From contig JBEITS010000023.1 of the NCBI GenBank assembly GCA_040374805.1, forward strand, positions 1 through 10,749: a DNA stretch of 10,749 nucleotides, given 5' to 3'. The notes under the pieces are model-generated. The model made no database searches. It was not told the origin of the DNA and saw only the letters and a program-made list of their open reading frames with translations. This document shows positions 177 through 7,015 of the stretch, in pieces. The position numbers and the translations under genes were made by a program. The stretch's first letter is position 1. Each line of letters starts with the position of its first letter. This stretch comes from Campylobacterota bacterium (GTDB taxonomy: Bacteria > Babelota > Babeliae > Babelales > GCA-2401785).

Positions 177-201
177 TTTTTTAGGTCGAGCTTAGTTAAA
201 C

Positions 202-245
202 AAAAAGCCACGCACAGAATAACGGTGTGCGTGGCTTTTTGTTTG
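202..245. terminator. Bidirectional rho-independent terminator between the convergent MscS-like and NUDIX genes
   Basis: A perfect 11-bp stem agccacgcaca (206-216) pairs with tgtgcgtggct (226-236) around a 9-nt loop. It is flanked by an A-run on the left and a T-run on the right, so it reads as a terminator on both strands. Confidence 0.75.
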
Positions 246-4528: not shown

Positions 4529-5124
4529 TTAGATTCCTCTCCGATTTTTACGACTTCAACAACTTCGTGGTCGATTGCTTTAACCACCTTAACAAGGTTA
4601 AACGATTCTATGGGTTTTTTTGAGTGAGATTGAGCAAGGAGTTCGCGCGTGCTGCCGTTAACAATTACCTGTACTTTGCCTTGGCCATGCGCCGGAATTC
4701 TTTGGATTACAGTTGCGGGTAGTCCGACAGTCTTTTTGCTCGAAAAAACCGCCCCCGCGCCTTCAAGCGATAGCGCAATCTGCATTAGAGAAGCTGTGAT
4801 AATGAGCATTGCGATGCCACATCCTAGTGCGATGAGCATAGAATATCCTGGAGTCATTTTGAACTGCACGCTGCACGCAAGCCCAGCCCAGCCAAACATC
4901 ATCAAAAATCCAGACAGCGAATGTATGGTCAAAAATTTGAAGAGTGCGCCATCGTGATGATGCATGTCGTGCAGATCATCAACATCCATGTCGTGCTCAA
5001 AAAAGCCGCCGCCAAAGAACGATAGCATGAGGCGTAGTGCAAAAAATGTTGTTCCGAGGGTTGCGCTTACCCAGAAAATAGGATCCTGGGTGGTTGTTAG
5101 AAAATTAATAATGCGGTCAATCAT
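4525..5124 (-). CDS. yqiJ: NfeD-like membrane protein (YqiJ-type flotillin partner), 199 aa
   Basis: Membrane helices are followed by a C-terminal OB-fold-like NfeD signature, GQGKVQVIVNGSTRELLAQS...VKVVKAIDHEVVEVVKI. The gene sits immediately upstream of the flotillin gene with a 4-bp overlap, which is the canonical nfeD-flotillin arrangement. AAGGAA lies 8 nt upstream of the ATG at 5124. There is an unusual His/Asp-rich stretch, HDMDVDDLHDMHHHDG. Confidence 0.7.
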   Translation of the reverse strand: MIDRIINFLTTTQDPIFWVSATLGTTFFALRLMLSFFGGGFFEHDMDVDDLHDMHHHDGALFKFLTIHSLSGFLMMFGWAGLACSVQFKMTPGYSMLIALGCGIAMLIITASLMQIALSLEGAGAVFSSKKTVGLPATVIQRIPAHGQGKVQVIVNGSTRELLAQSHSKKPIESFNLVKVVKAIDHEVVEVVKIGEESK

Positions 5125-5197
5125 TGCGAGAATTCCTTAAAAAAGAGGTAAGGGTTCGAGTTTTAATGACGATTGCTGAGAGCTTGAGGTTTTTAGA

Positions 5198-5215
5198 AAT
5201 AAGGGGAATAAGGGG
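5198..5215. repeat. Tandem 9-bp direct repeat (aataagggg x2) in the promoter region of the nfeD-flotillin operon
   Basis: aataagggg occurs at 5198-5206 and again at 5207-5215, about 75-90 bp upstream of the nfeD start on the minus strand. It could be a regulator binding site. Confidence 0.3.
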
Positions 5216-5361
5216 CAAAACGACAACGCTTTTTATGGTATCAGAGATAGAAAATTGTGGAAGTTTGGATGCTTGGTGGTGTTTTGGGCTATGGAATAGA
5301 TAATTTTATACTTAAGTTACGTGCGGCGCAGTTAGCTTAAGCCTTGATAAAGGCCGTCCTG

Positions 5362-5388
5362 CCAGTCAATTCCTCCGGAAATGACTGG
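5362..5388 (-). repeat. tRNA 3'-trailer hairpin, copy 1 (CCAGTCA-N13-TGACTGG), overlapping the CCA of tRNA-Glu
   Basis: ccagtca attcctccggaaa tgactgg: a 7-bp stem whose tgg on the plus strand is the CCA of tRNA-Glu on the minus strand. The loop contains the palindrome tccgga. Confidence 0.5.
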
Positions 5389-5462
5389 CGTCCCCAAGGG
5401 GATTCGAACCCCTGTTACCAGAATGAAAATCTGGTGTCCTGGACCGACTAGACGATGGGGAC
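5386..5462 (-). tRNA. tRNA-Glu (anticodon UUC), 77 nt including an encoded CCA
   Basis: The reverse complement reads GTCCCCATCGTCTAGTCGGTCCAGGACACCAGATTTTCATTCTGGTAACAGGGGTTCGAATCCCCTTGGGGACGCCA. It folds as a cloverleaf: 7-bp acceptor stem GTCCCCA/TGGGGAC, anticodon loop TTTTCAT giving anticodon TTC, and T-arm AGGGG-TTCGAAT-CCCCT. It is very close to enterobacterial tRNA-Glu. Confidence 0.92.
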
Positions 5463-5523
5463 TAGCACTAAGAATAGGTAATGGATTAGTCCGTAGACTC
5501 AGCATCTGTGTGAGGCTGGCTTG

Positions 5524-5550
5524 CCAGTCATTTCCGGAAGAAGTGACTGG
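5524..5550 (-). repeat. tRNA 3'-trailer hairpin, copy 2 (CCAGTCA-N13-TGACTGG), overlapping the CCA of tRNA-Lys
   Basis: ccagtca tttccggaagaag tgactgg: the same 7-bp stem as copy 1, preceded by the same tg. The loop is approximately the reverse complement of the copy-1 loop. The tgg at 5548-5550 is the CCA of tRNA-Lys. Confidence 0.5.
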
Positions 5551-5623
5551 TGAGCCGCGTTGGATTCGAACCAACGACCCACAGCTTAAAAGGCTGTTGC
5601 TCTACCGACTGAGCTAGCGGCTC
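5548..5623 (-). tRNA. tRNA-Lys (anticodon UUU), 76 nt including an encoded CCA
   Basis: The reverse complement reads GAGCCGCTAGCTCAGTCGGTAGAGCAACAGCCTTTTAAGCTGTGGGTCGTTGGTTCGAATCCAACGCGGCTCACCA. It has acceptor stem GAGCCGC/GCGGCTC, D-arm GCTC/GAGC, anticodon stem ACAGC/GCTGT with loop CTTTTAA (anticodon TTT), and T-arm GTTGG-TTCGAAT-CCAAC. Confidence 0.92.
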
Positions 5624-5657
5624 TTATTTGGTAATCCATTTGTATACCATGCCACCA

Positions 5658-5686
5658 ATCGTACCGAAGTGGGTTCTGACTGTCAA
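5658..5686 (-). promoter_or_regulatory. Sigma70-type promoter for the tRNA-Lys/tRNA-Glu operon
   Basis: The minus strand reads TTGACA (plus 5681-5686), a 17-nt spacer, then TACGAT (plus 5658-5663). The -35 is perfect and the -10 matches 4 of 6. It lies about 34 nt upstream of the tRNA-Lys 5' end. Confidence 0.5.
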
Positions 5687-5997
5687 GACTGAATCGTTCA
5701 TATGCCGAGATTTTTATACAAAGAAAACTTTTTTGATAAAAATACGCACTTTTTATATCCAACTTCTTATAAATGTTTCAGCATGAATCGTGGCAATAGT
5801 TAAAAGCGCAAAAAACACGCTTTTTTAATGCTGCGTGCTGGTTTGTTATAGGGCCATTTTTATGTGTTTCACTGTGTGATTTATTGTGAGAGTGCAGTTT
5901 TCTGTTTTTAAGCGATAGTGCGAGGTTGGGTTTTGTAAAAAAGCTTAGTGTTCACCAGAAGAAATTGCGTGTTTTTGGCTTGGTTGGTTTGGAAAAA

Positions 5998-6807: not shown

Positions 6808-7015
6808 AACTGTTCTTTTTTATACATTTTGAGTGGGAGCATTTTACAAAATTTCTCCCTGTGTTCCAGTGTTCTTAAAAAAGTCCCAAAAGACGCTTTT
6901 TTCGCGGTGTTTTTGCCCAAGAATTGGGCTGTGTGAAGTTTTGATATGTTAATTTTTTACTCAGGCGACGTTGTTTTGTTTGAGTGGCCATACATTTGTT
7001 CTTTGGGGGATCTGC

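Follow-up and report, generated by a model that had tools for sequence, protein, structure and literature searches.

In a 10,749-nt contig (JBEITS010000023.1 of assembly GCA_040374805.1; the whole stretch is called the window here), the genes for tRNA-Lys(UUU) and tRNA-Glu(UUC) are both followed by the hairpin CCAGUCA-13 nt-UGACUGG, in which the encoded CCA end of the tRNA forms the base of the 5' arm. Comparison with related genomes indicates that a sub-clade of the phylum Dependentiae conserves the pairing of this trailer hairpin and not its sequence, and that the loop of the Glu copy was recently inverted in the window strain. At the level of sequence we regard both the structural conservation and the inversion as solid. 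The hairpins may be paralogous 3'-trailer structures of a Lys-Glu operon that act as a lineage-specific, CCA-masking RNA structure in tRNA 3'-end maturation or protection, a function for which our confidence is evenly balanced.

The pattern CCAGTCA-N13-TGACTGG matches at exactly two places in the window, 5362-5388 and 5524-5550 (Table 1), and the same two places only are found if the spacer may vary from 9 to 17 nt. None of 200 dinucleotide-preserving shuffles contained a match to this wider pattern; no copy of the trailer hairpin is expected by chance. On the RNA strand the 3' end of the Lys gene reads A-CCAGUCA-CUUCUUCCGGAAA-UGACUGG-CAAGCC and that of the Glu gene G-CCAGUCA-UUUCCGGAGGAAU-UGACUGG-CAGGAC. 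On this strand, C74, C75 and A76 of the tRNA are the opening three bases of the 5' arm in both hairpins. An earlier note on this DNA, made from the letters alone, had described the same stem after both tRNAs with the CCA inside the 5' arm, and the tRNA coordinates from ARAGORN and Rfam agree with the pattern match on this point. In both hairpins, RNA folding predicts an outer stem of 7 bp that a single mismatch separates from an inner stem of 4 bp, which is capped by a loop of 3 nt. In the Glu hairpin, the discriminator base G73 additionally pairs with the C after UGG, giving an outer stem of 8 bp. These outer stems of 7-8 bp hold 4-5 GC pairs. The folding energy is -12.9 kcal/mol for the Lys hairpin (z = -2.8, pairing probability of the CCA 0.99-1.00) and -19.1 kcal/mol for the Glu hairpin (z = -6.3).

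Aligned as an inverted repeat, the Lys and Glu copies are 93% complementary over 28 nt and both contain TCCGGA, so the loops are indeed approximate reverse complements of each other, as had been noticed. The likeness of the two copies runs about 11 nt beyond the hairpin (CAAGCCAGCCU after Lys, CAGGACGGCCU after Glu). Identical flanks had been claimed as well. This is correct for the TG in front of both copies on the plus strand, but a CA follows them only when the tRNA (minus) strand is read, and this CA is the TG already mentioned, seen on the opposite strand. On the plus strand, the base 3' of the hairpins is the complement of the discriminator base (C at 5389, T at 5551). No Rfam family other than tRNA matched at gathering score in the window or in five related loci.

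The comparison with related species covers the Lys and Glu tRNAs of six genomes, i.e. the window and the loci L153, L157, L162, L163 and L164, which represent four or five further species with flotillins 84-90% identical. The tRNAs of these relatives are identical or nearly identical to those of the window, while the trailer sequences differ and can be sorted into three types. Type 1 (both window trailers, L163 Lys(UUU), L157 Glu and L164 Glu) consists of CCAGUCA, a U-rich/A-rich inner stem, UG(A/C)C(U/C)GG and CA(A/G)G. Type 2 (L162 Glu, L163 Glu, L153 Lys, L164 Lys and L153 Glu) begins with CCAGUCUUCGC and closes with CUGG or ACUGG; in L153 Glu, CCAA is closed by UUGG. Type 3 (L163 Lys(CUU) and L157 Lys) has the form CCAUAC...GUAUGG with an interior of 15 nt or 42 nt. 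The stems starting at C74 thus have either long arms (CCAGUCA/UGACUGG, CCAGUCA/UGCCUGG, CCAGUCA/UGACCGG and twice CCAUAC/GUAUGG) or short ones (CCAGU/ACUGG, three times CCAG/CUGG, and CCAA/UUGG). Across these three unrelated-looking sequence types the complementarity starts at C74 or N73 in 12 of 12 sub-clade trailers, and in two of them the arms reach into the acceptor stem. L163 carries an own hairpin after each of three clustered tRNAs.

Calculated with 60 nt of trailer, the probability that C74 to A76 are paired is at least 0.93 in nine of the 12 distinct trailers. As tRNAs with an encoded CCA at unrelated loci were too few to serve as background (n = 4), random CCA sites were substituted for them, and 8.1% of 1,500 such sites from the same Dependentiae loci reach a probability of at least 0.9. 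The binomial tail for nine of 12 is 3e-8, or 5e-4 when just the three sequence types are counted as independent. An alignment of the arms only (N73 to position 80 versus their partners) was used for covariation. In it 81% of the cells pair, compared to 8-43% in slid registers. Both partners have changed in four of the eight pairs: position 77 occurs as G-C, U-A or A-U, and positions 77-80 covary as GUCA/UGAC, UAC/GUA and A/U. The covariation score was reached in none of 500 shuffles. For type 1, the RNAalifold consensus comprises 13 pairs, one inner pair alternating between C-G and U-A. These alignments indicate that it is the pairing, not the sequence, that is conserved by the Dependentiae sub-clade. 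The proposal of a conserved trailer structure is thereby strengthened, since related species keep a CCA-anchored hairpin despite replaced trailer sequence, with the CCA still pairing to a downstream UGG and with covariation in the stem. The more distant L155 (81% flotillin identity) has a Lys-Glu spacer of 14 nt and no trailer hairpin, and the flotillin relatives P0002, P0008 and P0009 have no tRNA nearby. The 42-nt interior of the L157 Lys trailer (8925-8975, minus strand) holds GCTCATCCTGAGCGCAGTCGAAGGAC, which is like GCTCATACTGAGCTTGTCGAAGTA in the Lys-Glu spacer of L163 (3310-3345), so that trailers of the two loci have a small structured segment in common.

A search for proteins exactly matching the flotillin led to five contigs of the same species (L001-L005). 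Identity to the window is 99.6% for L002 and 98.1% for the other four. Each of the five has CCAGTCA-ATTCCTCCGGAAA-TGACTGG as its Glu trailer, and the window loop TTTCCGGAGGAAT is the exact reverse complement of ATTCCTCCGGAAA, with arms and loop length unchanged. The loop of the five contigs is oriented like the Lys loop CTTCTTCCGGAAA, with which it shares 11 of 13 positions. Compared to L002, the flip amounts to five clustered differences on a background divergence of about 0.3%. The alignment thus points to the two hairpins being direct paralogues, originally of the same orientation, and to a recent 13-nt inversion between the 8-bp inverted arms in the window strain. The idea of one small palindromic element present in both orientations had to be given up: because five contigs carry the other orientation at the same site, we read the two orientations as a strain-specific loop flip and not as two-way insertion. 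An assembly artefact is unlikely by reasoning, as the orientations share only the 8-nt arms, which are far shorter than an assembly k-mer, and the flanks are unique. A site-specific invertase was rejected, since the arms of 8 bp are only 13 bp apart, far too close for synapsis.

The most likely cause of the flip would be an intramolecular template switch during DNA replication, which would have turned the 13-nt Glu loop and left the stem untouched; recombination between the arms gives the same sequence outcome. Inversion of a hairpin loop with stem and length kept has been described as a footprint of template-switch mutation, and a class of loop inversion only has been catalogued in rRNA hairpins (PMC8794818). 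Like those cases, the window shows an exact reverse-complement loop of unchanged length between intact arms. The reported loops, however, are mostly about 4 nt long and partly self-complementary, whereas the present one comprises 13 nt, lies in a tRNA trailer and is polymorphic between strains of 99.6% identity. Seen between strains that are nearly identical, the flip offers a clean example from nature of how a hairpin can mediate inversion in bacterial DNA; one mutational event rewrote an RNA loop and created a long-range pairing option with the stem intact. By the flip the Lys and Glu trailers (5362-5389 and 5523-5550) have become complementary to each other. The minimum free energy (MFE) fold of the window dicistron contains a duplex of about 27 bp between the trailers that encloses tRNA-Glu (-132.7 kcal/mol), while the unflipped precursor of L001 keeps two local hairpins (-118.6 kcal/mol). 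The predicted duplex is long enough for a substrate of the RNase III type. Folding during transcription would still favour the local hairpins in the window.

A role at the RNA level is indicated because the sub-clade conserves pairing and not sequence. An RNA structure under selection, which most likely serves the maturation of the 3' end, would account best for the data. In the precursor, the encoded CCA and the next 1-4 bases would pair with the downstream UGG, and the acceptor end would be locked in a stem 7-12 pairs deep that adjoins the acceptor helix. Such a hairpin would bar 3'-to-5' exonucleases from the CCA, and release of the mature end would need, or be directed to, an endonucleolytic cut after A76. 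Going further, it may be that the sub-clade uses a dedicated CCA-masking hairpin as a cis signal for an endonuclease cutting after A76, and that replication template switching gives rise to these hairpins, copies them from one tRNA gene to another and remodels them; we put this forward tentatively and consider it rather doubtful. In Bacillus, RNase Z rejects CCA, and E. coli trims its tRNA precursors exonucleolytically. If true, the proposed maturation route would be unlike either of them.

Sequestration of the CCA could also delay RNase P. This is suggested by the report that RNase P is inhibited from forming its catalytic complex when the 5' leader pairs with the 3' RCCA (PMC9433436). Either way, a helix takes up the 3' CCA of the precursor. 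The known helix continues the acceptor stem with the 5' leader, whereas here a separate hairpin is formed with UGG of the trailer as partner. The pairing logic of UGG(C) with (G)CCA also recalls the T-box riboswitch by way of analogy. The T-box antiterminator pairs its UGGN with the NCCA of tRNA, and in L163 and L164, too, a UGG arm can form either of two helices that exclude each other, one being terminator-like. Unlike the T-box, which acts in trans from an mRNA leader, the trailer pairing takes place in cis in the precursor of the tRNA itself, and it comes with no specifier loop, no T-box sequence and no Rfam match.

Several observations weigh against a CCA-masking function. In the three remaining trailers the pairing probability of the CCA is only 0.06-0.5, and the L164 Glu trailer has an A76-C mismatch. 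The 12 trailers are kin by descent and local duplication and therefore not 12 independent observations, and the 3' arms for the covariation count were chosen by hand, which biases the count towards pairing. As L155 manages without the hairpin, it is dispensable in the phylum and confined to the sub-clade. In E. coli, exonucleases finish CCA-encoding tRNAs after trailer stem-loops have been removed endonucleolytically or by PNPase/RNase P (PMC2811032). A stable hairpin containing the CCA would hinder this exonucleolytic trimming, so that the proposal requires a candidate endonuclease. The in vivo fold and the cleavage site are predictions only, and the sampling of Lys and Glu tRNAs in six genomes limits how far the reading can be generalized.

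Concerning transcription of the tRNA genes, a consensus scan of 5100-5950 gave a single sigma-70-like site, just 5' of tRNA-Lys, and no promoter-like site in the Lys-Glu interval. Both genes probably form one operon that is transcribed from right to left with Lys first, and the Lys hairpin, located 85 nt from tRNA-Glu, is internal to this operon by the same inference. The window hairpins are followed by CAAGCCAGCC and CAGGACGGCC, neither of which contains a U-tract, and the terminator scan called no minus-strand terminator at either hairpin. Of the features of an intrinsic terminator they thus show the GC-containing stem-loop but neither the U-tract nor, with transcription units as inferred here, a position at the end of a unit. 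The protein genes in these loci end in long perfect hairpins between an A-tract and a T-tract (window 198-244, L155 2471-2515, L163 11394-11432). The one at 198-244 is a perfect 19-bp hairpin, AAACAAAAAGCCACGCACA-N9-TGTGCGTGGCTTTTTGTTT, with A-tract and T-tract, and this canonical form of a bidirectional terminator recurs after protein genes in all related loci. The tRNA trailer hairpins are without A-tract or T-tract, start with CCA and stand after each tRNA inside clusters. The view that they are not ordinary intrinsic terminators is supported by all of this. Downstream of the Glu hairpin, a small stem-loop at 5340-5355 could be a weak operon end, though this is uncertain.

It may still be asked whether the hairpins are non-canonical terminators or pause sites that lack a U-tract and lie flush against the tRNA, which we judge to be quite improbable. 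They are stable GC-containing hairpins directly 3' of genes, the Glu copy stands at the end of the tRNA pair, and in L163 and L164 an alternative GACUGG-CAGG-CCAGUC-UUUU interleaves terminator-like elements with the CCA hairpin. However, both window copies lack a U-tract as well as a terminator call, and the Lys copy and all three L163 copies stand between tRNAs that share one orientation and are separated by 60-140 nt; in the window, this interval holds no promoter-like site. Protein genes of these genomes end in canonical terminators with a U-tract, and termination needs no pairing of the CCA. A known case of a trailer terminator is E. coli leuX, where either PNPase takes off the stem-loop or RNase P does so by cleaving 4-7 nt beyond the CCA (PMC2811032). 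There, too, a stable hairpin right after the encoded CCA has to be removed for tRNA maturation. In the present trailers, by contrast, the CCA is the base of the stem, a U-tract is absent, hairpins also follow operon-internal tRNAs and the pairing of the CCA is kept by covariation. In L163 (3231-3275) and L164 (5178-5200), a CCAGUC or CCAG comes after the hairpin and offers its 3' arm (...GACUGG or ...GCUGG) another partner; the small stem that would result has UUUU behind it. According to these folds, CCA hairpin and terminator-like hairpin are mutually exclusive in L163 Lys and L164 Lys. In the window the competing second helix is degenerated.

About 159 kb of Dependentiae DNA from 10 related loci were scanned for further copies. 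The type 1 hairpin occurs there solely at tRNA 3' ends. Eight matches to CCAGTCTTCGC were found with at most one mismatch. Four of them begin at the CCA of a tRNA and two are second copies downstream inside a tRNA trailer; the other two (L153 and L159, opposite strand) are not beside a tRNA and look like chance matches. In viral contigs CCAGTCA-N13-TGACTGG gave at least 120 matches, with unrelated chance matches among the matches listed. The tighter pattern CCAGTCA-N6-CCGG-N3-TGACTGG gave 10 matches in 185,579 species genomes, where an estimated 17 or so are expected by chance, and 13 in metagenome contigs. A tRNA gene was present in none of the 10 species-genome loci, and of all 23 sites none follows a tRNA-like 3' end or is like the element in loop or flanks. 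Viral scans for the hairpin plus CAGG and for TCC-N12-CCAGTCTTCGC, as well as a flotillin-based locus search in viral contigs, gave nothing relevant. All three collections evidently lack this lineage. A dispersed family of miniature repeats, as had also been considered, finds no support in these scans, with no copy off tRNA 3' ends in the related DNA and chance-level matches only in the collections.

Behind the type 1 hairpin of L157, L163 and L164 stand CAGG and a second CCAGTC, which runs on as a type 2 trailer (CCAGTCTTCGCC in L157); compared to this CAGG-CCAGTC, the Lys tail CAAGCCAGCCU of the window holds a degenerate second CCAGYC. The type 1 layout is thus direct-inverted-direct, i.e. 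CCAGTC(A) - loop - (T)GACTGG - CAGG - CCAGTC. By analogy, this layout may be the product of a fold-back or template switch; it could also be read as an insertion with duplicated target. Template switching is known to yield duplication/inversion/duplication products (PMC13334657), and creation of hairpins by this process has been described (PMC8794818). As the same hairpin is found after Lys in one genome, after Glu in others and after both in the window, copying between neighbouring trailers is likely to have taken place. Two side observations concern displaced trailer pieces. In L164, an orphan type 2 trailer start, CCAGTCTTCGCTCTTTGAGCTATGG, lies at 5448-5472, about 95 nt downstream of tRNA-Glu, as though later insertions had moved older trailers away from the gene. 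At 3693-3735 of L162, a fragment similar to a tRNA 3' end (...GTGGGGGACGCCA) with a type 3 trailer behind it (CCATACTTCACCAAGGCTTGCGTATGA) lies 3.6 kb downstream of tRNA-Glu. No tRNA was called there by ARAGORN or Rfam, and the fragment may be a remnant of a duplication or integration event.

These data bear on three further explanations. The hairpins could be a neutral by-product, with replication template switching at the structured boundary of a tRNA gene making inverted repeats that include the CCA and the RNA hairpin being functionless. The loop flip demonstrates that the element is subject to template switching or an equivalent process mediated by the hairpin, and the direct-inverted-direct layout that L157, L163 and L164 have ahead of an older CCAGTCTTCGC trailer is a miniature duplication/inversion/duplication (PMC13334657); fast trailer turnover between genomes with identical tRNAs and the lack of the hairpin in L155 also fit. 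A neutral process should, however, give varied offsets, whereas the complementarity keeps its start at C74 or N73 in all 12 trailers of three sequence types. Moreover, pairing is kept by changes on both sides, and the fact that only two of the 12 arms extend into the acceptor stem suggests constraint, so we consider this explanation unlikely. Alternatively, a small mobile or gene-converting palindrome of about 31 nt, comparable to repetitive extragenic palindromes (REP) or miniature inverted-repeat transposable elements (MITEs), might target CCAGTC at tRNA 3' ends and bring its own CCA. This would explain why nearly the same hairpin stands after Lys in L163, after Glu in L157 and L164 and after both tRNAs in the window, always with CA(A/G)G next to it and mostly with another CCAGTC, like a duplicated target, ahead of an older trailer, and it would accommodate the orphan CCAGTCTTCGC copy 95 nt downstream in L164. 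We nevertheless hold it to be improbable. The scans found no copy away from a tRNA end in the related DNA and no relatives in viral, genome or metagenome collections, no REP-associated (IS200/IS605 Y1) transposase is nearby, the sole transposase of the window being an unrelated IS5, and the element is too short for known MITEs. Types 2 and 3, which are without the element, pair their CCA as well, and mobility does not explain this. Neither two-way insertion with target-site features nor an associated RAYT or DDE transposase was found, although the repeated CCAGTC is readable as a target duplication. With REP elements, the bacterial interspersed mosaic elements built from them and MITEs, the hairpin shares that it is a short, imperfect intergenic palindrome found in both orientations in the window and at several sites. 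It differs in that copies occur only at tRNA 3' ends, that no transposase is associated and that the second orientation is an in-place loop flip instead of an insertion.

Finally, the palindrome might act as DNA, being bound by a protein or used for recombination where the tRNA gene ends, for instance as the operator of a regulator or the core site of a recombinase. Its perfect inverted arms of 7-8 bp with a TCCGGA-containing centre look like such a site, tRNA 3' ends are common targets of integration, and the L162 fragment combines a tRNA-3'-end-like sequence with a trailer hairpin 3.6 kb from tRNA-Glu. But arm and centre sequences vary among the relatives and complementarity alone is kept, the site lies downstream of genes and not at a promoter, and no integrase or regulator gene is adjacent. 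The 13-bp spacer also exceeds the crossover regions of tyrosine recombinase sites, which comprise 6-8 bp. The attachment site of a tRNA-targeted integrative element does not fit either, as the shared sequence begins at the CCA, outside the tRNA body, and no integrase is among the neighbours. We regard a function as DNA site as very improbable.

Stem-loops after bacterial tRNA genes are well known. As far as our literature searches show, a covarying trailer hairpin that always starts with the CCA of the tRNA has not been described; the searches returned neither a paper on CCA-sequestering trailer hairpins nor one on tRNA processing in Dependentiae. If the hairpin is an RNA signal, it points to an unexplored way to make or protect tRNA 3' ends in an uncultured, host-dependent phylum with unstudied RNA processing. 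If it is mere mutational debris, tRNA gene boundaries would be hotspots of template switching.

Table 1. Features around the tRNA-Lys and tRNA-Glu genes of the window.
Feature	Position	Strand	Basis and remarks
Promoter-like site TTGACA-17-TACGAT	5658-5686	minus	consensus scan, consensus match only; upstream of tRNA-Lys
tRNA-Lys(UUU)	5548-5623	minus	ARAGORN and Rfam tRNA (74.6 bits); gene 1 of the probable operon; encoded CCA at plus-strand 5548-5550
Lys trailer hairpin CCAGUCA-CUUCUUCCGGAAA-UGACUGG	5524-5550	minus	pattern match, RNA fold
Lys hairpin tail CAAGCCAGCCU	5513-5523	minus	direct repeat D1 with Glu tail
tRNA-Glu(UUC)	5386-5462	minus	ARAGORN and Rfam tRNA (65.3 bits); gene 2 of the probable operon; encoded CCA at plus-strand 5386-5388
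Glu trailer hairpin G-CCAGUCA-UUUCCGGAGGAAU-UGACUGG-C	5361-5389	minus	pattern match, inverted repeat, RNA fold
13-nt loop inverted in the window strain	5369-5381		alignment to five contigs, L002 sequence
Glu hairpin tail CAGGACGGCCU	5351-5361	minus	direct repeat D1
Small stem-loop GGCCUU-UAUC-AAGGCU	5340-5355	minus	3' of Glu hairpin; in MFE structures; not called by terminator scan

A coding explanation of the region was rejected. The open reading frames (ORFs) at 5332-5574 (minus strand, 80 aa) and 5381-5617 (plus strand, 78 aa) merely overlap the tRNA genes and are almost certainly spurious. The majority of the proteins encoded in the window have no family assignment; assigned were a flotillin/SPFH protein, a NUDIX hydrolase and an IS5 transposase. 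Homologues with 70-80% identity to the flotillin carry the source names Candidatus Babeliales or Candidatus Dependentiae, and on account of these names we place the window organism as an uncultured member of the TM6/Dependentiae phylum. An exact-record look-up with a neighbouring protein of 199 aa gave no match.

The IS5-family element is located at 7730-8602. It has perfect 17-bp terminal inverted repeats (7730-7746 and 8586-8602) and encodes a transposase of 258 aa (7822-8598). A search with this transposase for other parts of the genome returned only contigs of 0.9-1.9 kb. The gene hit by the element is an intact ORF of 556-560 aa in L001, L003 and L005, its halves in the window being the ORFs 6971-7753 and 8564-9574. 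Within the 3' half of this disrupted gene, a 36-nt unit is repeated in tandem at 9454-9528 (two copies, 92% identity, period of 39 nt) and possibly encodes a 13-residue protein repeat.

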